Shown: positions 3,622 through 54,605 of the stretch, piece after piece | Layout: every line of letters begins with the position of its first letter | Numbering within the stretch: the stretch's first letter is position 1 | Assembly: GCA_964230645.1 (NCBI GenBank) | Contig: CAXRHT010000001.1 | Span: 224,001-288,000, forward strand | Length of the DNA stretch: 64,000 nucleotides | Reading direction: 5' to 3' | Origin: Bdellovibrionales bacterium | GTDB taxonomy: Bacteria; Bdellovibrionota; Bdellovibrionia; Bdellovibrionales; JAGQZY01 | The notes under the pieces: model-generated | What the model was told of the DNA's origin: nothing | Database searches by the model: none | What the model saw: only the letters and a program-made list of their open reading frames with translations | Position numbers and translations under genes: made by a program

Positions 3622-5397
3622 CTACTCAATCAGAATATCAAAAGGAAGTCTTGTCTTAAAGCTTTCTTGAATCGACTTTTTCTTAGCACTCAGAGCATTT
3701 CTTAAACTCTCAGGTAAAATCTGATTAAGCAAAGAGACCGAAACTCCCCCCATTTGTTTTAAAATGGCTTGAAAGGGCGAGAGCGGTTTCGGGTAAATAA
3801 CCACATCATAATCTTCAAGCTTGGCCAACTCCGCAGCTTTTAAAACCGCTTCGTTCAGACCTCCCATCTCATCGACAAGTCCTTTTTCAAGAGCATCCTT
3901 ACCAATCCACACTCGTCCTTGCGCCACTTCGTGAGTTTGTTCAATAGTTTCAAAGCTCGTGCGGCCATTGGTCACCACTGTCAAAAAGTCTTCATAAACC
4001 TGCTCGACAACATTCTGAACCTTTTGTCTTTCCTCTAAATCCACAGGACGCACAAGGGCATTTAAATCGGAAAAGCGGTGAGACTTATAAGTATCAAAGG
4101 TCATTCCCACTTTTTTATTCCAAAAATCTTTTGTGGCAAAACGAAGCCCAAAAACACCAATGGAGCCGGTAATGGTCGAGGGTTCTGCAAATATATACTG
4201 GCTTCCCGCTGAAATATAATAGCCTCCACTGGCGGCTACATTTCCGAAAGACGTCACAAAAGGTTTGGCGTCTTTTAACCACTGAGTGGAGGTCCAAATC
4301 ACATCAGATGCCAAAGCGGATCCTCCAGGGCTATTCACTCGCATCACAACAGCCTTCACTTCCTCTTCGCGCCGAATTTCCGTTAAAATTTCCGTGAGCT
4401 TTCTTGAGGAAATCCCCTCACCATCGGTTTCCTCTGTGGCAATACCACCTTCAGCAAAAACCACGGCGATTTTATTCTCTGAGCGCGCAACACGTGAATC
4501 CTTGTATTCCCGATAATACTTTCTCCAAGGTACGTATTTGGTCTTTTCTTCGGCTCCCGAGAGTTCTTTTAACTTCTCATCGACTTCCTCTTGGGAAGCT
4601 AACAGGTTTACAAACCCAGCCTTAAGCGCATCGGAGGCATACATGACAGAAAGCTCATCAGCCATCTCGTTCAAAGTCTCCACACTATTGTTGGATTTCT
4701 CAGAGGCGTATTTAAGAAGTTGATCCCAACTGCCTTGCACAAGAGCGCTAATCTGCTCGCGACTTGATTCACTCATTTCCTCATTAATAAAAGGCTCAAT
4801 GGCTGATTTGTATTTCCCCACTCGAAAAACTTGCGGCTCAACATCTAATTTTTTTGCCGTATTCTTTAAAAAGCTAAGCTTGGAAAAGAGACCATCCCAT
4901 TCAAAAAATCCTTTAGGGTAAAGAATAATTTCATCACTGGCTGAGGCCACAAGGTAATCCATCTCCGAATAGGCTTCTGCGTAAGAAATCAAAAACTTCC
5001 CTGATTTCTTAAAGCGAACAAGCTCACGGCGAAGCCCCTCGGCATTGGCCATTGCGGTCATCAGATTATCAAAACGGAGAATCACTCCTTGAATACGATC
5101 ATCTTTAGCGGCTTGTTGTAAAACCAAGGAAATTTCATAAAGCCCACTGACGGGCGGTTCATCGTAATTAACAATAGATGAGAAAATATCCCGCCGACTC
5201 ACATGATCTTTGAGTGGGCCATCAAAGGTGATTTCAAGAACGGAATTGTTCTCAATCCCCAACATCTCAGGCTCCCACTCGCTTGTGGTCGAAGATGCCA
5301 TAATGGCAATAAACATCATCAGCCCAAAAAACATCAAACTAAAAGCCAAAGTCGTCCCCATCATCGACGCCATAACAACTTTAAAAAACTGCTTCAA
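3622..5397 (-). CDS. sppA: Signal peptide peptidase SppA (67K type)
   Basis: RVGKYKSAIEPF, RVNSPGGSALASD, AASGGYY, TGSIGVFG and AQGRVW motifs. TTG start at 5397 behind GGAGGAG; the ORF-track extension to 5454 runs into a repeat. Confidence 0.95.
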   Translation of the reverse strand: MKQFFKVVMASMMGTTLAFSLMFFGLMMFIAIMASSTTSEWEPEMLGIENNSVLEITFDGPLKDHVSRRDIFSSIVNYDEPPVSGLYEISLVLQQAAKDDRIQGVILRFDNLMTAMANAEGLRRELVRFKKSGKFLISYAEAYSEMDYLVASASDEIILYPKGFFEWDGLFSKLSFLKNTAKKLDVEPQVFRVGKYKSAIEPFINEEMSESSREQISALVQGSWDQLLKYASEKSNNSVETLNEMADELSVMYASDALKAGFVNLLASQEEVDEKLKELSGAEEKTKYVPWRKYYREYKDSRVARSENKIAVVFAEGGIATEETDGEGISSRKLTEILTEIRREEEVKAVVMRVNSPGGSALASDVIWTSTQWLKDAKPFVTSFGNVAASGGYYISAGSQYIFAEPSTITGSIGVFGLRFATKDFWNKKVGMTFDTYKSHRFSDLNALVRPVDLEERQKVQNVVEQVYEDFLTVVTNGRTSFETIEQTHEVAQGRVWIGKDALEKGLVDEMGGLNEAVLKAAELAKLEDYDVVIYPKPLSPFQAILKQMGGVSVSLLNQILPESLRNALSAKKKSIQESFKTRLPFDILIE

Positions 5398-5431
5398 AAC
5401 TCCTCCTACGAACCTTCTCAAAAAAGACTGG

Positions 5432-5601
5432 CCTGTGCCTTCCGTAGGAAACAATTAGAATGTCTTTGAGTACAGGCTCGAGCAGCGAGCATTGCGTATC
5501 TTGGAGCGCGACATGCAATGGCGCGATCCGGGAGACGAAATGCACCCGCATGCGTGCCTGTGCTCAAAGACATTCTAATTGTTTCCTACGGAAGGCACAG
5601 G
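5432..5601 (+). repeat. Long-stem hairpin element, family I (copy A)
   Basis: 46-bp inverted arms (5432-5477 and 5556-5601, one T.G pair) around a 78-nt core homologous to 54403-54480. Confidence 0.9.
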
Positions 5602-5612
5602 ACAGGCCACAA

Positions 5613-6617
5613 TTATGCTTCGCGAACCATCTTCGCGCAAGCTTCGATCCAGTGATCATCGTCATTGAGGCAGGGCACAAATCGAAAGGACTCTCCTCCC
5701 GCGGCTAGAAAGCTCTCTTTTCCACCAAGAGCGATCTCTTCAAGGGTTTCTAACCCATCAACAGAGAATCCAGGACAGATGACACTCACCTTTTTATGTC
5801 CCTTTCCGGCCAACTCTTTGAGTTTGTTCTCTGTTGAAGGTTCTAACCACTTCTGACGCCCCAATCGGGATTGAAAACTAACACTATAATCCTCGGGACT
5901 GAGGCCCAACTCTTTGCTTAAAAGTTGAGCGGTCTTAAGGCACTGAGCTCGGTAACAAGTTTTTAAAACGTTTTGTGGTGCTTTTTCACAGCAGTTTTCT
6001 ACTTTCAGGCAGTGCTGTCCTGTGGGGTCCGTTTTGAAAAGGTGACTTTCTGGAAGACCGTGAAAACTCATTAATAAGTGCTCACCTTTCTGAGGCAGCC
6101 CTTGAGTCTTTAAAAAAACACCATAGGCTTTAATGAAGCGAGAATCATCAAAATAAGGCTCTATTACCGTGGCTTTTTCATTCTCAAAATACTGCTCAAA
6201 TTTTTCAAGACCCGTTTTAACCGTTGAGTCCGCATACTGCGGGTACTGAGGAAAGAAAATGATCTTCTCGCAGTCTTTAAGCTCATCGTGGGCGCTTTTA
6301 AAACCAGGCTCACCGTATCTCATGGCAACCACGACTTGGTAGTTTTGCCCCAATTTTTGCTGAAGCGCCTGAGCGGCTTTTTTTGTTTCCACTAACAGAG
6401 GAGAACCCTCACTCGTCCAAACTTTTTTATAATTGGCTGCTGATTTCGATTTCCTAAAAGGCACGATGATCCCCTTAACTAAAAGGGCTCGAAAAAACCA
6501 GGGCAGTTGGATGACATGTTTATCCATTAGAAATTCACCCAAATAGCGTCCTAAGGCTTTGGAATCGGGTCCATCCGGAGTTCCTAGGTTTGAGAAAACC
6601 ACTCCTATTTTAGCCAA
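5613..6617 (-). CDS. hemH: Ferrochelatase
   Basis: NLGTP, PQYPQYA, SFHGLP, FQSRLG-WLEP, LETLEEI and PCLND motifs. Likely TTG start at 6617. Confidence 0.95.
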   Translation of the reverse strand: MAKIGVVFSNLGTPDGPDSKALGRYLGEFLMDKHVIQLPWFFRALLVKGIIVPFRKSKSAANYKKVWTSEGSPLLVETKKAAQALQQKLGQNYQVVVAMRYGEPGFKSAHDELKDCEKIIFFPQYPQYADSTVKTGLEKFEQYFENEKATVIEPYFDDSRFIKAYGVFLKTQGLPQKGEHLLMSFHGLPESHLFKTDPTGQHCLKVENCCEKAPQNVLKTCYRAQCLKTAQLLSKELGLSPEDYSVSFQSRLGRQKWLEPSTENKLKELAGKGHKKVSVICPGFSVDGLETLEEIALGGKESFLAAGGESFRFVPCLNDDDHWIEACAKMVREA

Positions 6618-7833
6618 AGTGGCCTCCTTCAATTTTCTTTAAATTTTTCCTAGCCTTGAGCAAAATTTTACTCAACCCTAAATCCCCTAGATAATTTCCA
6701 ATAAAGAGATAAGGAGATTTGTCGTTTTCTAGATCCACGAGAAACTCTCTTAAGGCACTGTCATAAAGAGGAATCTTACCGGGCCACTGATAGACATAGG
6801 TTTTCTTTGGATCCACCCTCTCACCAGTAAGTTTATAACGATCCGTCATCACGTAGCGGATCAGAGCGGTATGACTCATATGGGAGAAATCCATTTTGTC
6901 GTCATTGAGAATCCAAGTTTCTGAAACGTGCGAGCCTCCACGACCTTTAAATATATTGTTATTAAATAAGACTCCCAAAGAATTAAAGCTTTCTTTTTTC
7001 GGAAATAAGCAGCCAAATCCGTCTTTCTTTTGAGCCACTTTGTTTTTTCCAAAACACAAAGTGACGGAAGTGAGAGAGACCGACTTTGTTTCAAGTATAC
7101 TTTTTGGAATATCCAACCTCTGACTATTCACAAGGCTTCTCATATCAGCCAAGCTCACTGCAAAAATAGTGGGATTTTGATTGAGATTCTCTTTTTCGGT
7201 TTCCAGAAAAAACTCACAACCATTTTCCACTAGATATTTGCGGGTCTGCTCGATCCACTCTCCCATTCCACCTTCAGGAGCGACGGATCCTCTTAACTTA
7301 CCTTTCTTTGGCCTTTTCTTAAGGGAGTCTAAAATCAATTGGGCATCAAGGTTTTTGGATTCGGTCGCGTAAACACCCTGCATACCGGGCTCCAAAAGGT
7401 TTTCTGTGACAGAAGCCCCAAGCAGTCGACATCCCCAGTCCCACAAACTCTCATCAGGACTTGCAACCAATTTGTCTTTACCCCATTTTGCCATCAGAGC
7501 AAATTTAGCCAGGGGAAGACTTTCAAAAAGACTCAGTGGCCAGCGGCTCATCTCTCCGTTGTTATAGACATAACGTTTACGCGCTTTCCTTTTTTTGGGG
7601 CGTAATTTCACCCCAATAACCGACGCGACTCGCTCAAGCTCTTTATTGGCAAGAAAAGCATTGGCTCCCTGTTCGATCAAAAATGGGGAATCCAACTTAG
7701 TACCAAGCAGTCCTCCTACTTTGGTTTCTTTTTCAAAAACCCGAACATTATAGCCTTTCTCTGTTAAATAGAAGGCCTGCATTAGCCCTGAGAAACCGCC
7801 ACCAATGATGTCAATTTTTATATCTTTACTCAC
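6610..7833 (-). CDS. hemY: Protoporphyrinogen oxidase (HemY/HemG FAD type)
   Basis: GGGFSGL dinucleotide-binding motif, EQGANAFL, GFGCLFP, LGVLFN; lies in the heme operon. Confidence 0.88.
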   Translation of the reverse strand: MSKDIKIDIIGGGFSGLMQAFYLTEKGYNVRVFEKETKVGGLLGTKLDSPFLIEQGANAFLANKELERVASVIGVKLRPKKRKARKRYVYNNGEMSRWPLSLFESLPLAKFALMAKWGKDKLVASPDESLWDWGCRLLGASVTENLLEPGMQGVYATESKNLDAQLILDSLKKRPKKGKLRGSVAPEGGMGEWIEQTRKYLVENGCEFFLETEKENLNQNPTIFAVSLADMRSLVNSQRLDIPKSILETKSVSLTSVTLCFGKNKVAQKKDGFGCLFPKKESFNSLGVLFNNNIFKGRGGSHVSETWILNDDKMDFSHMSHTALIRYVMTDRYKLTGERVDPKKTYVYQWPGKIPLYDSALREFLVDLENDKSPYLFIGNYLGDLGLSKILLKARKNLKKIEGGHFG

Positions 7834-7847
7834 TTAAAGGAAGCTCC

Positions 7848-9197
7848 TTACAAGGATTTAGAGAAAATTTCAGACTCTGGTTTTTTACGCAGAAGCCTTT
7901 CATCTAGAGAAAGACAGGCGTTACGCAAAAAGGGCTTTCCTTTTTTGGTTAAGCGCATCTCACCCTCTTTAATTTCAACCAACTGGTCTTGAATCATTTC
8001 TTTTAAAAATTCTTTCACTCGTTTTTCTTGCGCCTCGTTTTCAAAGCGAGTTTTACCAATAGTCATAAACTCTAAAATTTGCTCTCGCCTCTTCTGATCT
8101 TCCTCGGTTAAAAGATGACCTCGTAAAGTGGAAATTTCCCCTTGTTGAGTACGCCTTTCATAAACTGGCAAAGCTTTTTCATTCTGATGAAAGCAGTCTG
8201 GGGTTTCTGAGATCGCACTCACGCCAAGACCTAAAAGCACTTGCGTGCGCTCTTCGACATAACCCATGAAATTTCGGTGAAGCTCATTTTTCTCGAAACT
8301 TTTAGAGAGATCGTCAGTGGGAAGGGCGAAATGGTCCATACCAATTTCTACATAGCCTTTCTCTAAGAGAAAGGCTCTTGAGATTTCATAAAGTCGTCTT
8401 TTGTCTTTTCCCTTAGGGAGATCTTCGTCTTTGAAAAGTTTTTGAGCGGGTTTGATCCATGGAACGATCGCCAGGGAATAAAGAGCAATACGGTCGGGCT
8501 TAAGCGTCCAAGTTTTCTCCATCATATCCATGACTGAGGCCTCTGTTTGCGTGGGAAGGCCATAGATCAAATCAAAATTAACCGAGGAATAGCCTAAGCT
8601 TCTTGCTGCCTCGGTGATTTCCAAAGTTTGTTCGTAAGGCTGCACTCGGTGCACCAAACGCTGCACCTCAGGGTCAAAGTCTTGAACCCCTAAGCTCACT
8701 CGTGAAAAGCCCACGTCCCGCAATCTTTTTAAATGCTCTTTTGTGGTGCGCCGAGGGTCCACCTCAAAAGAGCCATGAAAGTTTTCAGGACGATTGAGAT
8801 TTTTCATAATCTCAAGAGCTAATGTTTGTAAATTTTTAGGACTTAAAAAGGTGGGTGTTCCTCCCCCAAAATGAAATTGCTGAAGGGGGGATTCCATTAA
8901 CTCGGGCAAAGCCTCCAAATAAAGACTCATTTCCTTGAGCACAATATCCATATAGGGCTCTTCTCTTTTATGATTACGAGTAATACTGGTGTTGCATCCA
9001 CAAAAGGTGCACAGCGTTTCGCAATAGGGAATATGAACATAAAGAGACCATGGCGGACGATTTTTATAGGCTTTTTTTAACGACTCAATCCACTGCTCTG
9101 TTGTGGGTGAATCCGACCAATAAGGAACCGTCGGATAACTGGTGTAGCGAGGTACGGGTACATTGTACTTATAAAAAAGTTCGTCTGAATCTTTCAA
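7848..9197 (-). CDS. hemN: Oxygen-independent coproporphyrinogen III oxidase (radical SAM)
   Basis: PRYTSYPT, CETLCTFC, GGGTPT, IGMDHFA and HRNFMGY motifs. Likely TTG start at 9197 overlapping the hemE stop. Confidence 0.95.
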   Translation of the reverse strand: MKDSDELFYKYNVPVPRYTSYPTVPYWSDSPTTEQWIESLKKAYKNRPPWSLYVHIPYCETLCTFCGCNTSITRNHKREEPYMDIVLKEMSLYLEALPELMESPLQQFHFGGGTPTFLSPKNLQTLALEIMKNLNRPENFHGSFEVDPRRTTKEHLKRLRDVGFSRVSLGVQDFDPEVQRLVHRVQPYEQTLEITEAARSLGYSSVNFDLIYGLPTQTEASVMDMMEKTWTLKPDRIALYSLAIVPWIKPAQKLFKDEDLPKGKDKRRLYEISRAFLLEKGYVEIGMDHFALPTDDLSKSFEKNELHRNFMGYVEERTQVLLGLGVSAISETPDCFHQNEKALPVYERRTQQGEISTLRGHLLTEEDQKRREQILEFMTIGKTRFENEAQEKRVKEFLKEMIQDQLVEIKEGEMRLTKKGKPFLRNACLSLDERLLRKKPESEIFSKSL

Positions 9198-15481: not shown

Positions 15482-15594
15482 ACTTGCTGCCCAAAGGTAG
15501 CGCTAGCGTGTCAAACATTACGCACCTTAGCTACCACTCGGAAGCAGGTACCTATAGGTGACGCAGAGGCGCTACCAATGGGAAGCAGGTACCT
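15482..15594. repeat. REP-like cluster: one inverted and two direct ~34-nt units
   Basis: ACGCA-N5-GCTACCA-N3-GGAAGCAGGTACCT at 15520 and 15561; a degenerate inverted copy at 15482-15509. Confidence 0.7.
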
Positions 15595-15602
15595 TTTGGT
15601 GA

Positions 15603-16888: not shown

Positions 16889-16896
16889 GTGAGGCA

Positions 16897-25620: not shown

Positions 25621-26703
25621 ATGGACTACGGTCATCGCAAGATTATCCACATTGATATGGATTGCTTTTACGCGGCTGTTGAGATGCGTGATCGTCCGGA
25701 TCTCAAAAATCGCCCACTAGCTGTGGGTGGTTCTCCCACAGGTCGTGGCGTACTAACCACCTGTAATTATCCAGCCAGGCGCTATGGTTTGCGCTCAGCT
25801 CTCTCCGCCAGAGAAGCCGTTAAACTCTGCCCTGATTTAGTCATCTTACCCGTTCGCATGAACAAATACCGGGAAGTCAGTCTGGAAATCTTAGAAATTA
25901 TGAAAAGCTATGCCTCTAAAATTGAAAGAGTTTCACTCGATGAGGCCTACTTGGATGTCACAGACTCCTCTCTCTTTGAGGGCAGTGCTAGTTTAATCGC
26001 AAAGAAGTTGCGTACAGACATTCGCGAAAAACTTGATCTCACGGCCTCTGCCGGAATTGCTCCCAATAAATTTTTAGCCAAAGTGGCCAGTGATTGGAAA
26101 AAGCCCGATGGGCAATACACTCTTGCTCCGGCTGATATCCCAGAATTTATAAAAACCCTTCCCGTTCAGAAAGTGCCAGGCGTGGGTCGTAGTTTTCTCG
26201 CTAAACTCTCCGAGAAAAATTTGAAAACCTGTGGAGATCTTCAGGCGATCAGCCTCAGTGATATGACTCACTATTGGGGCCAATGGGGAGCCAGACTTTT
26301 TGATCTTTGCCGAGGAGTGGATCAAAGCCCTGTGAGGTCAGAGAGAAAACGGAAGTCCATTTCCGTTGAAAGAACTTTTCGGAAAGATATTTCCACTTGG
26401 GAGGATTTGCGTCCTTGGGTAGAAAATCTTTTTGAGGAGCTTGAGTACCGAGTGAATAAAAACAACATCCAAACGGAACAACTCAAAAGCCTTGGAGTGA
26501 AAATGAAAACCCAGGACTTTGAAATTACAAGCCTTGAGAAGACTCTTCCCTTTGAGCTAGATAGCTATCTAGATCTCAGCCAAAAACATTTTTACAATCA
26601 GAATAAACCACTAAGACTTTTGGGGCTGGGTGCAAAACTCAACGAAAAAACTGAAAAGAAAAACCGCCAACAAATGAAGTTTGAACTAAGTCCAGGAGTG
26701 TGA
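25621..26703 (+). CDS. dinB: DNA polymerase IV
   Basis: HIDMDCFYAAVE, YPARRYG, SLDEAYLD and NKFLAKVASDWKKPDG motifs. Confidence 0.97.
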   Translation: MDYGHRKIIHIDMDCFYAAVEMRDRPDLKNRPLAVGGSPTGRGVLTTCNYPARRYGLRSALSAREAVKLCPDLVILPVRMNKYREVSLEILEIMKSYASKIERVSLDEAYLDVTDSSLFEGSASLIAKKLRTDIREKLDLTASAGIAPNKFLAKVASDWKKPDGQYTLAPADIPEFIKTLPVQKVPGVGRSFLAKLSEKNLKTCGDLQAISLSDMTHYWGQWGARLFDLCRGVDQSPVRSERKRKSISVERTFRKDISTWEDLRPWVENLFEELEYRVNKNNIQTEQLKSLGVKMKTQDFEITSLEKTLPFELDSYLDLSQKHFYNQNKPLRLLGLGAKLNEKTEKKNRQQMKFELSPGV

Positions 26704-27395: not shown

Positions 27396-27396
27396 A

Positions 27397-27555
27397 GTGA
27401 TCCCGAGAAATGTTCATAGTCATCCTGAGATTTATTCATAGTCATCCTGAGACTTGTTCATTGTCATCCTGAGCGAAGCGAAGGATCTTAGGTCTTTCGC
27501 TTCGCTCAAGACGACATGCTCTCATCCAAGAAGACAGGCTTTCATCCGATATGAC
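27397..27555. repeat. GTCATCYTGAGC palindromic (REP/RPE-like) element with tandem terminal duplications
   Basis: Core palindrome at 27462-27516; 22-nt units start at 27397, 27419 and 27441; 20-nt units end at 27535 and 27555. Confidence 0.85.
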
Positions 27556-30280: not shown

Positions 30281-31714
30281 ATGGGATTTGCAGCGGAAAA
30301 AAACGAAGAACAGCAGTTAGTAAAAGACCAAATCAATCTTGAGAAAAGACGATTGGGACGATCCGAACTTATGGTTTCACCCATATGTTTCGGAAGTCTA
30401 CGCCTCACTCCTGAAAATGGCATTTACAAAGAAACTCTTTACCAAGCTCTCAACAGTGGGATCCAGTTTATTGATACCAGCGGAGCTTACGGTAACGGAG
30501 CCTCAGAAATTGTTATTGGGGAAGCTTTAAGAGAATACGTTGGTCAGTATCCCGATAAAAAAGACTCCATCGTACTTTGTACGAAAATGGGTATTGTACA
30601 AGGCGCCACTTTACAAGAATTACAAATGCGCTCCCAAATGGGTCATAAAATCCCCGGGGCCTACAAGATCAGCGAACGTATGAGCTACTGCCTCACTCCA
30701 GAATACATTGAATCACAATTAAGCCTTTCTTTAAGACGACTGCAAACCGAACGCGTAAGTCTCGTTCTTCTGCAAAACCCAGAATATCTTTTAAAGATTC
30801 TAGGATCAAAAAAAGAGTTCACCACTTATCTTAAAAGGGCTTTTGAGCACCTAGAAGTGGAAGTGGCTAAAGGAAGAATCTCTCACTATGGAATTAGTTC
30901 GAGTGCCTTTTTGAAAAAAGAGATTGCGCCTGATTTCCTTGATATTGATGAGGTGGTGGCGATTGCCGAATCGATTTCCAAGAAACATCACTTCTCAGTG
31001 GCCCAGGTTCCTTTCAACTTATTTGAGTCAGGACCTCTATTCACTAAGAATCAAAACAAAAGATCCTTTTTTGAAGCGGCCCACATGCACGATCTTGGGG
31101 TACTCACCTGCCGTCCTCTCACAAGCCATCATCGCGATAAGGTTCATCATTTTATCACCTTCCCTGGAAAAGACGAGGTTTCTATTAAAGGACGCCTACA
31201 TACCTTATTAATGGAAGTTGTCGAGCTTGAAAAAGAGCTGTTTAAAAAGATGCCTGAACACAAAGACCTCAAATGGGGACACCTTCTTCGGAACAACCTC
31301 AATAAAATTAGCGACTGGTGGAAGTGGAATCAGTACTTACAAAAAAACATACTTCCTAGTATGCAAGAAAGTATCGAGAAATTACCCCACTCTCCTGAGT
31401 GGAACAATTGGAAAGTGAACTACGTCAATCGCATGCACTCACTTTTTGGCTTAGTTACTGACAGTTTACAAGGGATTGCGAACCTACGCACCAATCAAAT
31501 CTGTCACTACCTCAATCAGGAGTGCGCTTCCCTTGAGGACGAGACTAAGCTTTCTAATAAAGTGACAAGGCTTTATCTTTCTCTCCCGGAGATTCACTCG
31601 GTGGTTATGGGGCTATCTCATCCTGACCATGTGGAAGATCTTTTGGAACTCGGAGAGATTCCTGATACGCAGACCACACTGCAAATTCTTAAGAAAGTTA
31701 AGATGCATTTCTAG
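30281..31714 (+). CDS. Aldo/keto reductase family protein (long form)
   Basis: LGRSELMVSPICFG, IDTSGAYGNGASE, TKMG and SLRRLQ motifs. Confidence 0.85.
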   Translation: MGFAAEKNEEQQLVKDQINLEKRRLGRSELMVSPICFGSLRLTPENGIYKETLYQALNSGIQFIDTSGAYGNGASEIVIGEALREYVGQYPDKKDSIVLCTKMGIVQGATLQELQMRSQMGHKIPGAYKISERMSYCLTPEYIESQLSLSLRRLQTERVSLVLLQNPEYLLKILGSKKEFTTYLKRAFEHLEVEVAKGRISHYGISSSAFLKKEIAPDFLDIDEVVAIAESISKKHHFSVAQVPFNLFESGPLFTKNQNKRSFFEAAHMHDLGVLTCRPLTSHHRDKVHHFITFPGKDEVSIKGRLHTLLMEVVELEKELFKKMPEHKDLKWGHLLRNNLNKISDWWKWNQYLQKNILPSMQESIEKLPHSPEWNNWKVNYVNRMHSLFGLVTDSLQGIANLRTNQICHYLNQECASLEDETKLSNKVTRLYLSLPEIHSVVMGLSHPDHVEDLLELGEIPDTQTTLQILKKVKMHF

Positions 31715-31745: not shown

Positions 31746-31888
31746 GAAGGCCTCGGTTGCCTTCGTTTGGCGGGAACATTCGCTAAAATAAACCGCGGCT
31801 CCTGCCTAACCTAAATTTCGCCCTCTGGGCGAAAACGCGTCCGCTTTTAGGAGGTTCATTTTAGCGAATGTTCCCGCCAAACGAAGGC
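31746..31888 (-). repeat. Long-stem hairpin element, family II (copy C)
   Basis: 36-bp arms (31759-31794 and 31853-31888); shares GAAGGCCTCGGTTG, GCTCCTGC and CGCGTCC motifs with 41037-41203. Confidence 0.85.
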
Positions 31889-31928
31889 TATCGTGGTTCG
31901 AACGTGTCCTTGATCAAATTAGCTTTTT

Positions 31929-32582
31929 TTATAGCTTGTTCATTAAAATTTTCTTTACTTGTTTCTTTAAATTCGGAAGAATTTCTTTTTCGAACCAGGG
32001 GTTCTTTTTAAGCCAGATGTTGTTTCTTGGGGATGGATGAGGAATTGGGAGATAGTTATTCTTTAAATGTTGCTTCCAGTTTTTTACGTTTTCTGTGAGA
32101 GTTTTTGATTCGTTTTTTAATATGTGGTCTTGGGCGTATTTTCCTATGAGAAGGTAGAGTTTGGGTTCTTTAAGGGCTTTTGACAAGGGAGGGTCCCATA
32201 TTTTTCGGCATTCCTTTAATGGCGGGAGGTCGCCGGAGTCTCCTTTGCCGGGGTAGCAAAAGGCCATGGGGAGAATGGCGAAGTTTGAAGGTTTGTAGAA
32301 TGTTTTTTCTGTCACTCCTAGCCAATCTCTTAGTCGTCTTCCGCTGGGGTCATCGAAAGGAATTCCTGAATTGTGAGCTTTGAAACCGGGGGCTTGGCTG
32401 ATGAGTGCGATTTTGGAATTCGCTTCAAAGCTCACAATGGGCCTTGGGGCTAAAGGAAGAAACTTTCTGCAGTGAATGCAGTTTCTTATTTTTTTAAGTA
32501 GCTCTTGGTCGGTAGTGATAAAAAAGCTCCGCTTTTTGTGGGTTTTATGCAACGAATTCCTTATTCTTGAGGAATACAGCAC
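31929..32582 (-). CDS. Uracil-DNA glycosylase family protein
   Basis: SQAPG, PFDDPSGRRLRDWLG, CYPG, IGKYAQ and HPSPRN motifs. Start is uncertain. Confidence 0.9.
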   Translation of the reverse strand: MLYSSRIRNSLHKTHKKRSFFITTDQELLKKIRNCIHCRKFLPLAPRPIVSFEANSKIALISQAPGFKAHNSGIPFDDPSGRRLRDWLGVTEKTFYKPSNFAILPMAFCYPGKGDSGDLPPLKECRKIWDPPLSKALKEPKLYLLIGKYAQDHILKNESKTLTENVKNWKQHLKNNYLPIPHPSPRNNIWLKKNPWFEKEILPNLKKQVKKILMNKL

Positions 32583-33356: not shown

Positions 33357-33465
33357 TGTCATCTTGAGTATCGTACTGTCATCTTGAGCGTCAGCGAAAG
33401 ATCTTTCGCTATCGCTCAAGATGACATTATGAGGTTCAAGATGATAATATGAGGTTCAGGATGAC
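33357..33465. repeat. GTCATCYTGAGC palindromic element with 20-nt tandem terminal duplications
   Basis: Core TGTCATCTTGAGCG...CGCTCAAGATGACA at 33377-33426; extra units at 33357, 33435 and 33455. Confidence 0.85.
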
Positions 33466-39570: not shown

Positions 39571-41025
39571 GTGTTGCATTCATTATTACCAGTTCGCTTC
39601 TTTTTTGTTTCGATTCTCATTTTAGGATCGACTTCCAAAGCCTCTCTTCGTCTAGAGGAAGGCTCCTATGCCAATAGAACTCATATTGATGCTGCGTTAA
39701 GAAGAGCCAATCTCAACTTCACCTACAGAGGTTGTGACCAAACCCCTGATCCCCGCCGCGTGCAACTCACTCCCGACCCCAATTGCGCGCGAAGCACTCC
39801 TCAGGAGACTGGAACCTCCGGAAATGCCCATGGTCGCACAAGCCTTGAAGGACGAGTGACTGCCACCTACGAAGACCAAACCGAATGTGAAGACAACGAA
39901 CAAGTCACCAGACGCATTCACACCAATCATTCTTTAAGAAACATCTACGAACATTTTGAACGCCTGGGCTGCCGCCCTACTCACATTGTGATTGAAGACA
40001 GCGATCCCGAGTTTTTAAGTCAAGTCAGACAAAGCACTCAAGATCCTAGTCTTTGTGAAATTCCTGAGACTCGCATTTCAAAACCGGGTTTTCCCACCGA
40101 CGAACATTCTTTTTTCAATATGAGTGCTAATGATGAAGGCTTTAAAATCGGCGGACACACCGAGTATAAATTCAATCACGACACAGGCTCTTGGTGCGTA
40201 CGATACATCCCTAACAACACTGGAAGTTGCGAACAGCCCCAAGACTGGCCAGGCCCCATTCCAATGCTTTACTGCACGGACACCACCCCTAACAGCTGCC
40301 AGCAAGGCCGAGGGAACTATCACGTTAAGGGAACGGTTTCGCTTATGCCCAATGGACAAGCGCAAATCCGTGCTATGAACCGAACTTTTTCCAGCTACGA
40401 GGCTGTGTTTGAAGCTCAGAAAAATGGGGAACTCACAAATACGATCACTTCGGCTGGACGCATTGATTTTCAAACCTGGAGAAAACCCAACGGGCTTGTT
40501 CGCAGTATCGTACGCTCTTACGACCAAGACACACCCGGCGCGAACCATCAAAGAGCGATTAACTTTTTTGCCCGTAATGTTTTTGGGATTGGGGTGACAA
40601 GCAGTTGGTGTTCGGATGAGCACTGCTTTGCTGATGTTAGCCAGGAAAGGCTTCGCCCCTCTCGCTGCGAAGATAACCCCAGTGTGAATCTCCACAATGG
40701 AGGAAGTGGGAACTTGTGTCACTCTTGCATTGGAATTCTTCCGGGACATTGTGCGATTGAACGCCAAGAAGTGGACTACTTGCGCTCGAAGCTTCGCCAA
40801 AACTCCCAGTTTACCATTCTTGATACCGGCGAGTACAAAATGGGTCAAAACGTTGAAACCGGTCTCATGGCCAATTTCAACCGTATCGTTACCACTCCTC
40901 AAAATAACCGCGGCTGCTTTGAGGGCCACTCCCCTTCTTTTGATCATGTCTTTGATCCTGGGGAAGTGGAACGTAATGGGAGCACTGAGGGGCGAACGAT
41001 TCAGAACAAAAAAGAATCGCTTTAG
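39571..41025 (+). CDS. Secreted Cys-rich hypothetical protein, possible atypical L,D-transpeptidase-like C-terminus
   Basis: Signal-like segment ending STSKA (start probably 39571 or 39574 rather than 39436); VNLHNG...CHSCIGI. Confidence 0.6.
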   Translation: MLHSLLPVRFFFVSILILGSTSKASLRLEEGSYANRTHIDAALRRANLNFTYRGCDQTPDPRRVQLTPDPNCARSTPQETGTSGNAHGRTSLEGRVTATYEDQTECEDNEQVTRRIHTNHSLRNIYEHFERLGCRPTHIVIEDSDPEFLSQVRQSTQDPSLCEIPETRISKPGFPTDEHSFFNMSANDEGFKIGGHTEYKFNHDTGSWCVRYIPNNTGSCEQPQDWPGPIPMLYCTDTTPNSCQQGRGNYHVKGTVSLMPNGQAQIRAMNRTFSSYEAVFEAQKNGELTNTITSAGRIDFQTWRKPNGLVRSIVRSYDQDTPGANHQRAINFFARNVFGIGVTSSWCSDEHCFADVSQERLRPSRCEDNPSVNLHNGGSGNLCHSCIGILPGHCAIERQEVDYLRSKLRQNSQFTILDTGEYKMGQNVETGLMANFNRIVTTPQNNRGCFEGHSPSFDHVFDPGEVERNGSTEGRTIQNKKESL

Positions 41026-41036: not shown

Positions 41037-41203
41037 GAAGGCCTCGGTTGGCATTCAATCCTGTTTTGCTGGAGTTTTTAAGACACCTATTTTCATAGGC
41101 ACAGCTCCTGCTTTGCTGGCATCACCCTGCGGGTGAGCGCGTCCCGCTTGCCAGAGCCTACGAAAATAGGTGTCTTAAAAACTCCAGCAAAACAGAATTG
41201 AAT
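41037..41203 (-). repeat. Long-stem hairpin element, family II (copy D)
   Basis: 48-bp arms (41053-41100 and 41156-41203, two mismatches) around a 55-nt structured core. Confidence 0.88.
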
Positions 41204-41245: not shown

Positions 41246-41998
41246 TTAGAGGTAAATTTTCTTCATTTCTTCGAATTCGCGGACGACGTCTTCTCGGATT
41301 TGTTCTTTTACTTTTTTCATTTCTTCGATGGGGACTTTGGCCATGTCGACAGGTGGAAGGAATCTTACGCCCACTTTTTTTGTCCAATTTGTTTTGTTAA
41401 TCAGGATAGAGCCTTTTGGTAGCACGCGGTCCATTCCGCAGATGACCACGGGGACGACGGGCATTTTTGCGTTGATGGCGAAGATGAAGGGGCCGGATTT
41501 GAATTTTTTTATCTCATCACCTTCGCGTCGTCCACCCTCTGGAGCTAAAGCGAAGGCTTCGCCTTTGGCGACTCTTTCTTCAGCTTTTCGGTAGACTTCT
41601 ATTACTTTGCTTCTGTCTTCTCTTGTGATTGGTAGAGTTCCGGCTAACTCCATAGCTTTTCCGAAAAGGGGAATTTTGAAAAGGGAGGCTTTGGCTCCGT
41701 AGCGGAAACTTTTAGGTGAACAGACAAATAAAAAGGGAATGTCCATATGACTGCAGTGGGTGAATAAAAAGAGGAAGCCTTTGTTTTTTGGGACATTTTC
41801 TTGGCCTTCGATTTCAGGGATGACTCCGCTAAGTTTTACCATCGGGTAGCACCACATGGGGCCTACGGCGAAATCCACTATTTTTCTGGGAGCTCTTAGG
41901 AGTAAAAGACTAATCACTATGATCGAGCAATAGCCGGTGTGGAGGGCTACGAAAAATGCGAGAAAAAAAGAGCGAAGAAAAGCTAGGATTTTTAGCAT
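41246..41998 (-). CDS. plsC: 1-acyl-sn-glycerol-3-phosphate acyltransferase
   Basis: HCSHMD (HX4D), AKASLFKIP, PEGGR and FKSG motifs. Confidence 0.88.
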   Translation of the reverse strand: MLKILAFLRSFFLAFFVALHTGYCSIIVISLLLLRAPRKIVDFAVGPMWCYPMVKLSGVIPEIEGQENVPKNKGFLFLFTHCSHMDIPFLFVCSPKSFRYGAKASLFKIPLFGKAMELAGTLPITREDRSKVIEVYRKAEERVAKGEAFALAPEGGRREGDEIKKFKSGPFIFAINAKMPVVPVVICGMDRVLPKGSILINKTNWTKKVGVRFLPPVDMAKVPIEEMKKVKEQIREDVVREFEEMKKIYL

Positions 41999-44998: not shown

Positions 44999-45030
44999 AA
45001 AAGCCCTGGGTTAACACTCAGGGTTTTTTT
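44999..45030. terminator. Intrinsic terminator
   Basis: AAAGCCCTGGG-TTAACA-CTCAGGG followed by a T-run. Confidence 0.7.
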
Positions 45031-48757: not shown

Positions 48758-48795
48758 AACCTTTGTGACGACTATTCAGAAACATCTCTTTTTGA

Positions 48796-48830
48796 GCCCC
48801 ACTCTGTCCAAGAGTGGGGCATTTTTATTT
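48796..48830 (+). terminator. Intrinsic terminator
   Basis: GCCCCACTCT-GTCCA-AGAGTGGGGC plus a T-rich tail. Confidence 0.8.
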
Positions 48831-48927
48831 TTAAGAGCATTAAAACGGTTTTCATAAAAAAGACCCTCAACTCCCACCGACCAACGTCCGATAAAAAAGT
48901 ACAACTATTCGCCCTATAGGATGGTTA

Positions 48928-49302
48928 ATGCGTGTGTCTGTGATTGTTTTTATTTTGCTCGCCCTGATCATGTCAGGATGCGGCCTTGAATCGACGGTTC
49001 CTTCCGAACAGTCCTCCTCCCCATCCAGGGAAAGAGCGGTGTTTATATCTAGTATTGAGGATACACCCTCTGGCTCTATTGTCACCTGCGCACTCAATGA
49101 GGTTCTAGTGAGTGACAATATGGAAGTGCCTCTTTTTTTAGAGTTTGAGGGCGTAATGATTGAGCGAGTGATTCTATCCAATGAAGGCCTTTTCAGTTTT
49201 CACGCCTACGATCCCCCAGCAGACGGTAAGATTGTTTGTGTGGTCGAACTTGCCGATGCTGAGTTTGAAAGTGAAGAGGCATGGTTAGAGCACCAAGAGT
49301 AA
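48928..49302 (+). CDS. Hypothetical lipoprotein
   Basis: Lipobox MSGC; FliA-like promoter at 48867-48894. Confidence 0.6.
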   Translation: MRVSVIVFILLALIMSGCGLESTVPSEQSSSPSRERAVFISSIEDTPSGSIVTCALNEVLVSDNMEVPLFLEFEGVMIERVILSNEGLFSFHAYDPPADGKIVCVVELADAEFESEEAWLEHQE

Positions 49303-49384
49303 AAGCCGTAATATTTTCAAACCTACTTTTTATCATCCTCCAAATTCAATAAGATACAAGCCAAACAGTATCCTTAAGGAATTT

Positions 49385-50350: not shown

Positions 50351-50362
50351 ACTTCTATAAAA

Positions 50363-50887
50363 TTAATTAGGTGGCTCAAAAGTGAAAATAACATTGAGTG
50401 AGCCAAGATTAGAAGGCATCGGGTTTGATACCTGTTGATTGGTATCGGTCAGCCCCACAAGCTCTAGTGACAAAGTGTACATTCTGTCGGGCACGACAGG
50501 TTCTTTATTGATGAGAATCGGTACAACGAAACGCCCCGACTCACAGCGGTCATCCACAAATCCTTGTGCTACCACTTTCTGAGCTCCGAAGCCTTCTCTC
50601 ATTTCAAAAAGAAAACTATGATGTCTAAACTGTCCCACACCACAGATCCCGCCCACATTAAAGTGACCACCATTGTTAAGTGTAGAATATTCGATTTTAT
50701 AAGGATCAAACTCTCGGATGGTCATCCAGAGCTGATTGGCACTGGTGGCACAGTTCCCCTCACTACATTGTTGCGGTGTTAGGGCTTCTTCGGCCATAGA
50801 TAAAGTGTCTCGTGTGAGATTATCTCCACAATTTTGGAATCCTAAAAGGATCACTCCCATTGTCATAAAGACAAGAACGACTTTCAT
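50363..50887 (-). CDS. Hypothetical lipoprotein with GFQNC signal
   Basis: LLGFQNC lipobox variant; GCCGATAA -10 element at 50907-50914. Confidence 0.75.
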   Translation of the reverse strand: MKVVLVFMTMGVILLGFQNCGDNLTRDTLSMAEEALTPQQCSEGNCATSANQLWMTIREFDPYKIEYSTLNNGGHFNVGGICGVGQFRHHSFLFEMREGFGAQKVVAQGFVDDRCESGRFVVPILINKEPVVPDRMYTLSLELVGLTDTNQQVSNPMPSNLGSLNVIFTFEPPN

Positions 50888-50989
50888 GTATCCCCCAGTC
50901 CCTCTATTATCGGCTTATTGCTTAAGAAAATCGAATGATTTGCCTCCCCTTGGTACCATCTTCAAATAATTGATGTTAGAAGTCTCATA

Positions 50990-52516
50990 ATGATACGCAC
51001 ACTACTCCCCGCTCTTTTGATTCTTTTGACTCAATGTACAGGTTCAAAAAATAAAGAACTCACCCACTTTAGCCTCCACTTATTCCAAGAGCCCATGCAC
51101 CTTGACCCCACACGAGCCCGAGCCTCGACCTCTAGTTATTTTTTTTACAATATTTTGAGAGGCCTTTATAAAATTAATGAGAAAAATGAGCTGGAAACTG
51201 AGGGTGGAAAGTGCCAGTGGCTCTCTTCTAAAAAACTCACTTGTAAAATCAGAGATCAACACTGGTGGGATGGCACTCCGGTTCAGGCCAAGGATTACAA
51301 AAGAAGTTTTATCGACCTGATCGACCCAGAAAACGCCTCTCCCAGGGCTCACTTACTGGGTCGTATTGAGGGAGCTCAAGAAATCCTGTCCGGTCAGAAA
51401 GATCCGAAAGAGATTTCCTTTGAAATCACCTCTGAGGATTCTTTTAGCCTTCAGTTTAAAGACCACGACCCTGAGTTTTTATATAAACTGGCAAGCACTG
51501 CCCTTTTCCCGACCCACAAGAATCGGGCTGATACCCGGCAAGACTTTCAAAATTTTATTGGCAACGGTCCCTATAAAATGGCCACCTGGCAGGCCGGTAA
51601 GCATCTAGAATTAATTCCTAATCCACACTACAAAAAGGGTCACCCCAACAGGCCTCCCGTTAAAATTTATTTTATCGATGACGAAATGACAGCCTATCGC
51701 CTCTACGAAAAAGGAGAACTGCAGTTTTTAAGACGCATTCCCTCAAAGCTTTTTCATAAAGTCTTAGAGCGGGATGACTTTTTTCAACTGCCCATGCTTC
51801 GTTTTGACTACGTCGGCTTCGGCGATGATTTAAAGGAAAACAAAAATCTAAGAGCGGCTTTAAGCCATTCTATAAACTACGAGGTCCTGAAAAAACTCCT
51901 CTTTGCTCTCGAACGCCCTGGCTGCCCCAGTATTCCTAAAGGCTGGATGCAGGAGCAACCCTGCTACGCTTTTGACCTAAAGACCGCAAAAAAATGGCTC
52001 TCCAAAGTGTCTGAACAAGACAAAAGCAAAGTTTATGATCTCAAGGTCAGTCAACAAGGTGGCAACGATATCAAGAAACAAGCGGAGTTTTTACAAAATC
52101 AATGGAAAAAACATCTGGGACTTAACGTGCGAGTGAGTCAAGTTGAGGGCAAAGTTCTTATTAACGAATTGCGCACAAGTCCCCCAGACATATTTAGAAA
52201 AGGAGTGGGCCTTGATCGCCCCACTTGTTTGAGTGCTCTAGAAACTTTTTCAGCCGACTCAAAACAAAACTATCTCGACATAAAGGATTCCGAGTACGGT
52301 GAATTTGTGACAGGTCTAAAAGAAGCCAAATCTCCGCAGCAATATAAAAAGATCTGCCAAAAAGCCAATGAGTATCTTTTAAAAAATTATTTTCTCATTC
52401 CCTTAGGAGAGATGCATTTTGGCATCATGGCTAAAAAGTCATTCACTGGCTGGAAAATGAATGGCATGAACCAATTGGACCTTAGTCAACTCTCAAAAGC
52501 CTCATCTCAAAATTAG
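50990..52516 (+). CDS. Peptide ABC transporter substrate-binding protein (OppA-like), orphan
   Basis: EP-HLDP, WWDGTPVQAKD, GNGPYK and NPHY motifs; lipoprotein signal; no adjacent permease genes. Confidence 0.88.
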   Translation: MIRTLLPALLILLTQCTGSKNKELTHFSLHLFQEPMHLDPTRARASTSSYFFYNILRGLYKINEKNELETEGGKCQWLSSKKLTCKIRDQHWWDGTPVQAKDYKRSFIDLIDPENASPRAHLLGRIEGAQEILSGQKDPKEISFEITSEDSFSLQFKDHDPEFLYKLASTALFPTHKNRADTRQDFQNFIGNGPYKMATWQAGKHLELIPNPHYKKGHPNRPPVKIYFIDDEMTAYRLYEKGELQFLRRIPSKLFHKVLERDDFFQLPMLRFDYVGFGDDLKENKNLRAALSHSINYEVLKKLLFALERPGCPSIPKGWMQEQPCYAFDLKTAKKWLSKVSEQDKSKVYDLKVSQQGGNDIKKQAEFLQNQWKKHLGLNVRVSQVEGKVLINELRTSPPDIFRKGVGLDRPTCLSALETFSADSKQNYLDIKDSEYGEFVTGLKEAKSPQQYKKICQKANEYLLKNYFLIPLGEMHFGIMAKKSFTGWKMNGMNQLDLSQLSKASSQN

Positions 52517-52661
52517 ATTTTTTTAACGATTTAACTCCACAGTCTCCTTTCATGGTTTTTACTCAAGACCTTAGAGCGGGAGACCTTAGTCGTTAAAATT
52601 GTTTTTTCCTATAAGCGCGTTCAAATTCTCACTTCTTATGACCGATGAGTAGGGAAGCATT

Positions 52662-54308
52662 ATGAAAAAGAAAAAGACACCACAATCAAATTATACCAAA
52701 CGCCTACGCAGCCTGATTGATATTGGGGTGGCTCTTTCTTCTGAAAAGGAACTCAACAACCTTCTTCGAGTTATTCTACAAAAAGCCATTGATGTTACCC
52801 AGTGCGAAGGCGCCAGCATTTACCTTGTGCACGAAAAGGCAACCCATAAAACTTCCAATGTGGTCTCACTGCAAAAAGAGTCAGTCTTGCGCTTTTTAAA
52901 GTCAATGAATCGAAGAGAGGGAATTTTTGATCAGCAAGGTGTTTTACCCATTGACTCCAACAGTATCGCCGGCCACGTTGCCCAGTCTAAAGAGATACTT
53001 AATATCAAGGATTGTTATAAAATAGACTCAGGCGAAGTTTTCCAATTTAACGATATCTTCGACAAAAACAACGATTACAAATCAAAATCCATGCTCACCA
53101 TCCCAATGATCACCGCGGATGGAAAGGTCAAAGGCGTTCTTCAACTTATCAACAAACTCTCAGATAAGGGCTTAGAAAAACTCGAAACAAATGGCAAAAT
53201 GGCCATGAACTGCATCCGCACCTTTAGTGACGATGATGTAGAATTAATGCGAGTTTTTGCCAGCTACGCGGCCATCGCACTAGAAAATTCACAACTCACT
53301 GAAAACATCGAAAACCTTTTTGAAAGTTTTGTCAGAGCTTCCGTTAAAGCCATCGAATCAAGAGACCCCACCACGAGTGGACACAGTGATCGTGTGGCAA
53401 TGATGACTGTGGAATTGGCTTTAGCAACTCACAAAATTAAAGAAGGTCCCTTTAAACACGTTCAATTCTCTGAGGAACAGATCAAAGAGATCCGTTACGC
53501 TTCCCTACTTCACGACTTTGGAAAAATTGGTGTTACTGAAAAAGTATTACTTAAAAAGAAGAAGTTACATGACCGCGACCTAGAGTCTATTTTGTTAAGG
53601 TTCGACACCACAGGTTTTCACCAGGAAACCAAGATCTGGAAAAACTTTAGCGAGAAACTGCTCGAACAAGCCCGTGGGAAATCTGATGGCTCATTTGATC
53701 CCGACAAAGCTTTTAAGGAAGCCAATCAACAAATTGAAACCTTAAAATCACGCATTCAAACTATGCGAAGCCAACTCATCACAGCCAATGAACCGCAAGT
53801 GATGAGTGATGACTTTGATATCCATGAACTGATTCAACGCTTAGAAAACGCCAATCATTATTTCAATGACAATGTCCTCTCTCAAGACGAACTAAAAACT
53901 CTATCGATACCCAGAGGAAGTCTGAATTTAGAAGAAAGAAAAGAAATCGAATCCCACGTGAGTCACACTTACGAATTCTTAAAACAAATCGCCTGGACCG
54001 ACAATCTTAGCCACGTCACCACAATCGCCCACTGTCACCACGAAAAAATGGACGGCACCGGCTACCCAAGAAAAATAGCCGGCGACCAAATCCCGATTCA
54101 ATCAAGAATGATGACGATCGCCGATATCTATGACGCCCTAACCGCTTTCGACAGACCTTACAAAAAGTCAGTCACTCCAGCCCGCGCTCTAGAAATTTTA
54201 ATCAAAGACGCCAGAGCCGGAAAAATCGACGGATTCCTTTTGAAGATTTTCATTGAATCAGGAATCTTTCACAATGCGACTCTGGGCACCCACAAAAAAG
54301 CCAGCTAA
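52662..54308 (+). CDS. GAF plus HD-GYP domain phosphodiesterase
   Basis: GAF (SIAGHVA, SMLTIPM, LQLINK); HSDRVA, LHDFGK, HHEKMDGTGYP and DRPYK motifs. Confidence 0.93.
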   Translation: MKKKKTPQSNYTKRLRSLIDIGVALSSEKELNNLLRVILQKAIDVTQCEGASIYLVHEKATHKTSNVVSLQKESVLRFLKSMNRREGIFDQQGVLPIDSNSIAGHVAQSKEILNIKDCYKIDSGEVFQFNDIFDKNNDYKSKSMLTIPMITADGKVKGVLQLINKLSDKGLEKLETNGKMAMNCIRTFSDDDVELMRVFASYAAIALENSQLTENIENLFESFVRASVKAIESRDPTTSGHSDRVAMMTVELALATHKIKEGPFKHVQFSEEQIKEIRYASLLHDFGKIGVTEKVLLKKKKLHDRDLESILLRFDTTGFHQETKIWKNFSEKLLEQARGKSDGSFDPDKAFKEANQQIETLKSRIQTMRSQLITANEPQVMSDDFDIHELIQRLENANHYFNDNVLSQDELKTLSIPRGSLNLEERKEIESHVSHTYEFLKQIAWTDNLSHVTTIAHCHHEKMDGTGYPRKIAGDQIPIQSRMMTIADIYDALTAFDRPYKKSVTPARALEILIKDARAGKIDGFLLKIFIESGIFHNATLGTHKKAS

Positions 54309-54344
54309 GAGAATAAAACTATAACCGTTAACTAACTTTTAAAC

Positions 54345-54538
54345 CATTTTGTGATCGAGTTCTTCGAATCTGCTTAGGATTTTGGGAGAATTTCGGAGGG
54401 GCTCGAGCAACGAGCGCTGCGTATCTTGGGCTGCGACATGCAATGGCGCAGCCCGGGAGACGAAGTGCACCCGGGTGCGTGCCGCTCCGAAAGGCTCCCA
54501 AAATCTTAAGCAGATTCGAAGAACTCGATCACAAAATG
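54345..54538 (+). repeat. Long-stem hairpin element, family I (copy B)
   Basis: 58-bp arms (54345-54402 and 54481-54538) around a 78-nt core, 66/78 identical to 5478-5555. Confidence 0.9.
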
Positions 54539-54605
54539 CCCCCGCCCCAAGTTTCTCGACACGCCCGAGTTTGTCCATCCTCCCCCAAGCGTCTATAACA
54601 ATTCT

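Follow-up and report, generated by a model that had tools for sequence, protein, structure and literature searches.

Why should the silent codon positions of housekeeping genes follow the orientation of a neighbouring hairpin repeat, and not that of the gene itself? The question was raised by a stretch of 64,000 nucleotides from a Bdellovibrionales bacterium (contig CAXRHT010000001.1, positions 224,001 to 288,000; C1:224001-288000 in our numbering), called the window below, in which four copies (A-D) of a hairpin element lie beside sppA, udg, plsC and a GAF/HD-GYP gene. From hand counts of third codon positions, an earlier note had proposed that each element is bordered on its 5' side by an A/C-rich halo on one DNA strand, caused by repeated exposure of single-stranded DNA. 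Here, X is the strand with the better core fold (+ for A and B, - for C and D; X gave the better fold in all four copies) and Y is the opposite strand. G000 denotes the genome analysed, other G numbers the compared genomes and L numbers loci. The halo was confirmed, and it was larger than first noted.

The genome comprised 3.78 Mb in three contigs and was 99.6% complete. Genes (3361) were called with its own dicodon model, and replichores were assigned by the sign of the GC skew. At synonymous third positions, A+C on X was scored against the expectation by codon family, gene strand and replichore. Elements were found by a scan for long inverted repeats and then by profile searches of the genome, and matched draws from 943 element-free gaps served as controls. 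Fifty-two elements of four core types were obtained genome-wide, namely 28 of T1, 11 of T2, 4 of T3 and 9 of T4; A and B belong to T1, D to T2 and C to T3. In the 5' flanks of the 43 T1-T3 copies, the excess of A+C on X was +0.27, 0.26, 0.21 and 0.17 in consecutive 100-bp bins and 0.13 at 401-600 bp, followed by 0.08, 0.06, 0.05 and 0.03 (to 1500 bp) and about 0 beyond 2 kb. The decay with distance, from +0.27 to +0.03 across 1.5 kb, was fitted by an exponential with an e-fold length of 411 ± 51 bp. The matched gaps gave +0.001 ± 0.007 (maximum 0.026) versus 0.185 observed, a value reached by none of 5000 draws. With exact ends, all 42 testable non-T4 copies (more than 40 sites) were positive, 32 of them at z > 3.

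The halo followed the polarity of the element, as the earlier note had supposed. It was +0.14 (z 16) for the 22 copies with the 5' gene on Y and +0.23 (z 27) for the 21 with that gene on X, and it was present in all four arrangements of the neighbouring genes (0.21, 0.26, 0.17 and 0.14). Both replichore orientations showed it (0.21 in 18 copies with X leading-like, 0.17 in 25 with X lagging-like). Codon positions 1 and 2 showed no shift (223 vs 216), and the strength of the halo was uncorrelated with arm length, mismatches, arm G+T or the C-run that adjoins the 3' arm. On the 3' side of T1-T3 copies, +0.07 and +0.04 were obtained in the first 200 bp and zero thereafter. This weak 3' bias (1-400 bp, T1-T3 and T5) had a different signature: on Y it was nearly all a gain of G over A (0.62, 0.38, 0.20), and T/C hardly shifted.

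In the window, the corrected 600-bp 5' flanks gave +0.33 (z 8.8) for D, +0.28 (z 7.0) for C, +0.20 (z 5.2) for B and +0.05 (z 1.3) for A. Copy D (41053-41203, - strand; 48-bp arms, three-hairpin core) adjoins plsC (PF01553; 41246-41998, -), where the count of 19/20 A/C at 41281-41340 was found again. Copy C (31751-31896, -; 44-bp imperfect arms, 58-nt core) adjoins udg (PF03167; 31929-32582, -), with 19/20 at 32101-32160 on recounting, previously given as about 18. Copy B (54345-54538, +; 58-61-bp arms, 78-nt core) follows the GAF/HD-GYP gene, the 3' part of which (52845-54308, +) carries its halo, still +0.08 at 600-1500 bp; the counts of 16/20 at 54001-54060 and 11/20 at 52861-52920 were reproduced. 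Copy A (5428-5605, +; arms 5428-5480 and 5553-5605, 78-nt structured core; DNA fold -27.6 kcal/mol on + vs -20.8 on -) had been offered as a control, because sppA, which starts in its 5' flank (4828-5427, scored on +), is coded on the - strand. When the count begins at the ATG at 5361, G/T endings are indeed found in 18 of the first 19 codons, but A is the weakest copy (its +0.05 is counted from the gene call at 5319), and the strong bias is limited to about 40 codons: G/T at 23/27 degenerate sites in codons 1-40 from 5373, and 0.54-0.59 beyond. The bias noted in the far flanks was real but small, at +0.19 (z 2.7) beside C (31560-31714, -, end of an aldo/keto reductase gene) and +0.19 (z 2.1) beside D (40930-41025, -), and zero beyond those stretches.

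A genome scan blind to the elements yielded 48 skew peaks at |z| > 4. Twenty-nine lay at T1-T3 copies, all with the expected sign; of the others, three lay at repeats of the RAYT type (RAYT, the transposases associated with repetitive extragenic palindromic, REP, sequences), two close to CGTC-like repeats and two in 3' flanks of reversed sign, and 11 had no long hairpin nearby (19 of the 21 unassigned peaks were inspected). The remaining peak (z 7.9) led to an unlisted hairpin, a fifth, singleton type between a 99-aa gene and polA, just upstream of polA (L041:1931-2054; G000 C3:715930-716053). A T-type element also adjoins polA in G011. The hairpin-less peaks (|z| 4-6; C1:204601, 913801, 925401, 932301 and 949301; C2:1135801, 1167101, 1605001, 1776101 and 1903001; C3:57401) are candidate scars of lost elements, foreign DNA or products of codon selection.

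Hairpins as such did not produce the halo, since 92 CGTC-like hairpin clusters genome-wide gave +0.005. Members of this control class in the window lie at 27396-27516, 33359-33444 and 58100-58190. A second CGTC-like class gave a marginal +0.02 (29 of 3000 draws). The CGTC-like repeats carry tandemly decaying tails, and a cognate nuclease was not found for them. The gene calls came from the genome's own dicodon model and the replichores from the sign of its skew, and an artefact of gene-end codon usage, replichore skew or gene calling might thus be suspected. It can practically be dismissed, being refuted by the matched gaps, the CGTC-like clusters and the element-free orthologues described below, most of which have no halo; the discovery of an unlisted hairpin from the strongest of the unassigned peaks also speaks against it.

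Each element consists of a conserved core between arms that are specific to the copy, mostly 35-65 bp. Within a copy the arms are near-perfectly complementary (12 mismatches in 897 mid-arm positions), and between copies their identity is 0.38 in T1, 0.36 in T2 and 79% in T4, the core being the conserved part. T1 is a single unbranched stem with conserved G-U pairs in its core on X. In T2-T5, hairpins branch off a long basal stem (arms about 25-70 bp) with covariation: 98.6% of cells are paired and 14 of 15 pairs show two-sided change, in an alignment fitted to the model. A C-run adjoins the 3' arm on the outside (C in 35, 34 and 29 of 38 T1/T2/T5 copies at positions 2-4; beyond B it lies at 54539-54550, +), and because it is conserved and unpaired, it marks where arm pairing ends. 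On Y, the 5' end of the element opens with a G-run. The reading of a 5' A-run as a decayed G-run was unsupported, as the A excess was the same regardless of the base that would pair. In the arms of relatives, stop codons occurred in 9 of 60 3' arms and 3 of 28 5' arms, a difference that is not decisive. Three T4 copies and one T1 copy have a 40-nt hairpin insert in common (L017, L016, L050, C1:733423), one T1 copy lies within the reading frame of a prepilin-type gene (L010:1467-1642), and G007 contains an element within an element (L333).

The exact T1 pattern had no match in GTDB or in the JGI metagenomes, and blastn with T1 matched none of 40 relatives; weak T1-like copies were recognised by covariance model in 6 of 25 family relatives. 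The T2-T5 covariance model matched 21 of the 25 family relatives and 25 of 120 sampled class members. Among the compared genomes, G006, G010, G011 and G130 are rich in elements, and G009 and G012 have none. In the relatives, 113 copies in 95 loci, a subset of these matches, showed a 5' excess of +0.133 (z 11), 0.085, 0.046 and 0.023 and none on the 3' side, with strengths from +0.26 in G010 to +0.06 in G002. Four other families (60 copies, 14 genomes) gave +0.088 (z 5.9) and +0.044; the halo was strong in family f10 (+0.31, +0.16) and weak and noisy in f5. Beside the shared msbA-like gene, the core of the same element is inverted between G041 and G024 (L366, L367, L368), which may be an assembly error. 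G006 and G010 carry divergent doublets (L147, L156, L165, L169, L171) with AT-rich, low-complexity, locally strand-skewed spacers.

The halo was absent from most orthologues that lack the element, in comparisons of plsC, udg and the msbA-like gene. The last 130 codons of plsC ended in A/C at 0.85/0.82 here versus 0.54/0.30 in the element-free closest relative, G004, and the last 65 codons at 0.35-0.60 in 19 of 21 relatives; the exceptions were G007 (0.70), with its own nested element, and G010 (0.76), in which the contig ends shortly past the gene. For udg, the last 130 codons gave 0.71/0.84 here against 0.45/0.52 in G008 and 0.37/0.51 in G011. The last 65 codons of the msbA-like gene reached 0.98 here and 0.39-0.66 in 15 of 19 relatives (39% in the nearest). 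Four exceptions were found: G041 and G024 (0.82 and 0.76) have their own long hairpin and halo, G019 has cleanly lost the element after msbA and kept the skew (0.75/0.77), and the value of G011 (0.80) has no evident cause. In the converse comparison, genes lying no more than 300 bp from an element in a relative had 0.653 A/C versus 0.525 in their element-free orthologues here (703 sites, 23 gene pairs). Of the four outcomes that the earlier note had named as refuting its proposal, none was obtained.

The composition of Y indicates what kind of change is involved. Near the element (≤200 bp), T over C and G over A were both raised on Y, with log odds of 1.1 for C>T and 1.3-1.5 for A>G, and the purine fraction barely changed (0.655 vs 0.624; 0.387 vs 0.376). 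The influence of sequence context on Y was weak (log odds 0.56-0.94 for C>T and 0.60-1.20 for A>G). The leading/lagging asymmetry of the genome (0.18-0.24) shows this 1:1 ratio too, so that Y resembles a leading strand that begins at the element and whose asymmetry is exaggerated about six-fold. Composition yields ratios of rates and not rates; for direct polarisation against relatives, third positions were near saturation (43-47% identical). As to population variation, contigs from four runs of a single study, two of them possibly from the source, showed no clear variant in the halos of C, D or msbA. We consider it probable that, starting at the element and regardless of the fork and of transcription nearby, Y is either synthesised anew with errors or remains exposed. 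The interpretation in the earlier note stands as to a one-strand process (polarity, decay, mostly element-dependent), while its deamination chemistry is unproven. Resection of a double-strand break, fork stalling and R-loops on X would presumably expose X, the wrong strand, and all three were rejected.

Deamination would act on single-stranded Y, be it a displaced flap, part of a displacement loop (D-loop) or the template opposite a gap in X, and it predicts these C>T and A>G changes on this very strand. The genome gave no match to Endonuclease V (PF04493); without this enzyme, hypoxanthine could persist while uracil is repaired, which would even out the two classes. Spontaneous deamination of adenine is far slower than that of cytosine, and yet the A>G excess equals or exceeds the C>T excess, and Y lacks a strong context. 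Moreover, if a gap in X were filled in the direction of the element, the halo-side arm would serve as template, and the single case of G041/G024 (below) suggests the opposite. Deamination is the main rival, though rather unlikely as the principal cause; strand displacement would also expose old Y, so both processes may act.

The reading to which we lean, at a little less than an even chance, is that the element is a one-way start site from which Y is repeatedly re-synthesised into the 5' flank of X, likely by a Pol I that lacks a proofreading domain, leaving wobble errors (A>G and C>T) whose frequency declines over about 1.5 kb. Polymerase error is favoured because A>G is as strong as C>T. It is also favoured because Pol I has no recognisable proofreading domain, here or in any Pol I-sized frame of 26 family and five other genomes. 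The enzyme here has 840 aa and no PF01612 match, and its best full-length PDB match is Taq; PF01612 occurred in 13 of 26 family genomes, always in frames of 159-277 aa and none of them Pol I-sized, and in none of the five genomes of other families. The genome's only Y-family polymerase match, a DinB-like gene in the window (25621-26703), is an alternative error-prone candidate. A further ground is that the footprint of Pol I at ColE1 shows the same two changes and the same decay. According to the accessible part of PMC3167613, error-prone Pol I extending the ColE1 primer produced, on the new strand, more A>G than T>C (32 vs 9) and more C>T than G>A, in one direction and with exponential decay over at least 1.3 kb. 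That system is a plasmid origin with an engineered mutator Pol I and the RNA II primer, whereas the sites here are natural and dispersed in the chromosome and the primer is putative.

A possible sequence of events begins with a protein that would bind the X-folded core and nick or prime Y near the C-run and 3' arm. Pol I may then extend Y by nick translation or strand displacement and fall off or hand over with an e-fold length of about 0.4 kb. The new Y strand would sometimes fold back and copy the first arm into the second, so that the arms stay perfect while drifting. Mismatch repair would correct these tracts poorly, and amino-acid changes would be purged by purifying selection, leaving silent and intergenic sites alone to record the process. 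In nine orthologous copy pairs, two-sided change was seen at 49 of 198 arm positions (27 transversions) and one-sided change at 11, and in G041/G024 the halo-side arm starts with an inverted copy of the uvrA stop region. Both the concerted change and the uvrA copy fit fold-back of the new Y strand. Homogenisation of arms by template switching in quasi-palindromes, as described in the portion of PMC5941160 consulted, explains perfect co-evolving arms but alone gives no kilobase one-sided skew outside the repeat.

Several results weigh against re-synthesis by Pol I. Synonymous divergence was not raised in the halos of G002/G008 (0.404 at 438 sites vs 0.406 at 2785 sites), the only pair close enough, with weak halos. 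Parsimony in three msbA halos gave 35 changes to G/T versus 13 to A/C, by a method that favours common-to-rare calls, and the saturated cross-genome comparison showed a transversion asymmetry too (55 vs 28). The G+T bias of the left arm was mild (0.56 in T1, 0.62 in T2, 0.55 in pooled relatives, 0.48-0.49 in G002/G008). The nine T4 copies had no halo, and four copies had a 3' flank of reversed sign (z -5.2, -4.0, -3.3 and -2.5; G000 C3:726612-726787, C2:1820734-1820891, C3:486890-487108 and C2:857758-857945), possibly scars of an earlier element in the opposite orientation. MutS and MutL are present.

Further such points concern the enzyme that would initiate synthesis and the distribution of the halo. 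No nicking or priming enzyme was identified in these searches: GIY-YIG was found in a UvrC-sized frame only, the 49 scanned genes neighbouring elements were housekeeping or unmatched (two more are RAYT-like genes), and a dense element cluster in G260 had no nuclease-like Pfam match among 18 open reading frames. The two RAYT-like genes of the genome are flanked by their own repeats, with other terminal repeats, and not by T elements. In G198 and G260, elements are present although no Y1 match was obtained. True TwoAYGGAY copies, the repeat family discussed below, showed no decaying halo in two Lachnospiraceae (37 recognised in 67 loci), whose Pol I presumably also lacks proofreading. In these (L374-L442; G186, G187), the arms reach about 100 bp, and the 5' side was G-rich in the examples viewed.

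Among family relatives, RAYT-like matches were present in 19 of the 21 with elements and in none of the four without, and as kin these are not independent; two of those four had IS200-like matches only, judged by score and length. In other families, 3 of 5 genomes had RAYT-like matches. The Atlas clusters nearest to the RAYT-like protein here come mostly from Bdellovibrionota. Repeats with the tag of the RAYT-flanking repeats had a shorter halo of the same sign within 150 bp, +0.15 (z 8.4) and +0.10 (z 3.5), values reached by 0 and 1 of 3000 draws. In the window, two REP-like copies with this tag (15530-15602, -) have a short halo on their 5' side, in the 15603-15911 gene (+0.19, z 3.7), and further tagged repeats with a short 5' halo lie at L011 and L012. 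The 22 Y1 loci of relatives had no convincing R2 match (one at E 0.28), and in viral contigs the T2 pattern had three matches, none with an R2 match.

Selection offers a different explanation, in which A/C-richness and lack of structure on X are maintained because the flank is a loading zone for a functional RNA or DNA hairpin, either a Rho-type RNA site or a helicase or single-stranded-DNA landing pad. In the nine orthologous pairs the core differed at 22 of 577 positions (3.8% vs 40% synonymous divergence), and this strong constraint makes it probable that a function preserves the elements; selection thus stays alive as a rival. The stronger halo where X is the mRNA strand, and the divergence in G002/G008 that was not raised, also suit it. 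The halo is nevertheless strong with the gene on Y (+0.14, z 16), decays smoothly over 1.5 kb without a motif, and was retained in G019 after loss of the element. Rho sites are pyrimidine-rich, and T is depleted in these flanks. Selection is thus improbable as the source of the skew.

A promoter in the element firing along Y could likewise generate R-loops that expose Y or prime synthesis, with Rho termination setting the decay. The G-run on Y would be compatible with this, and the length scale would suit short antisense transcripts. The wobble-supported fold and GGA loops, however, are on X; ordinary transcription here gives almost no such skew (coding-strand A+C 0.483); the halo is independent of a gene arriving on Y; and copy B, a weak test as one copy, has no sigma-70-like site. 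We would give a promoter only about one chance in ten. A mechanism like that of diversity-generating retroelements (DGRs) would have an X-strand RNA reverse-transcribed from a priming site at the hairpin and the product retrohomed into the 5' flank; such a cDNA would be Y, begin at the element and bear the same wobble errors. This mechanism is very improbable, as the 99.6% complete genome has no PF00078 (reverse transcriptase) match, antisense flanks have halos, and both transition classes shift, not adenine alone.

Among known repeats, the elements come closest in layout to TwoAYGGAY (RF01731; bioRxiv 10.64898/2026.09.22.753630): both are intergenic hairpins in many copies, with GGA-loop hairpins carried by a long basal stem. 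The divergent doublets of the relatives are a further likeness, as are the T4 copies, which abut a CGTC-like repeat array at a fixed 3' position as described there for Pseudomonas. A phylum member above the Rfam cut-off (L172) shows the T2-type layout. There are also differences. RF01731 had no match at the gathering cut-off in the window or in G000, nor in 14 loci at E ≤ 5. Two exact AYGGAY motifs were present in 0/17, 0/113 and 0/61 aligned copies, one in 2, 5 and 19, and GGA near the 3' loop in 17, 106 and 58; the loops are degenerate, and T1 is one unbranched stem. The accessible part of bioRxiv 10.64898/2026.09.22.753630 mentions no flank skew, and canonical AYGGAY-type copies of other phyla had no 5' A+C halo in our data (80 of 120 loci, fewer after filters, mostly high-GC genomes). 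The repeat is a TwoAYGGAY-like variant whose halo was not found described. By footprint, the elements may work like a ColE1-type Pol I start site, and by layout they resemble TwoAYGGAY.

DGRs and the mitochondrial D-loop are examples of site-directed, strand-specific local mutagenesis. Unlike DGRs and retrons, the present system has no reverse transcriptase match, no pair of template and variable repeats and no adenine specificity, and its targets are silent sites of housekeeping genes. Miniature inverted-repeat transposable elements (MITEs) have conserved terminal inverted repeats, whereas the termini here differ between copies. The REP/REPIN-RAYT systems are also strand-specific folded intergenic repeats (PMC8266576, PMC3116915, PMC5581495), and the RAYT-tag repeats here share the sign of the halo, but T elements do not flank RAYT genes, lack a shared terminal REP and have variable arms; no halo is reported in the accessible parts of these three papers. 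On the features tested, T elements are not REPINs, DGRs or MITEs. No repeat-anchored, one-sided synonymous skew in bacteria was found in the literature, searched by title or abstract start and with subscription papers mostly outside coverage.

These findings mean that codon endings in core genes are set by a repeat scattered through a bacterial chromosome, which locally overrides replication skew about six-fold, and that local codon bias can be the footprint of a repeat and not of translational selection. The current proposal for TwoAYGGAY, as far as the available part of bioRxiv 10.64898/2026.09.22.753630 goes, is that of RNA sponges, with Csr/Rsm binding proposed only and the link to mobility unresolved; the halo suggests that the repeats described here act on DNA. 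Through the halo, the action of REP-like and TwoAYGGAY-like repeats, and the strand concerned, can be tested directly, and it can be used to find elements and the scars of lost ones. Tentatively, at roughly one chance in three, the elements may be dozens of host-maintained, one-way chromosomal priming or nicking sites, or mini-origins, whose firing of Pol I synthesis does not depend on the replication fork, their activity being made visible by a non-proofreading Pol I. If so, the halo would be a readout, from sequence only, of which repeats are active sites of DNA processing.

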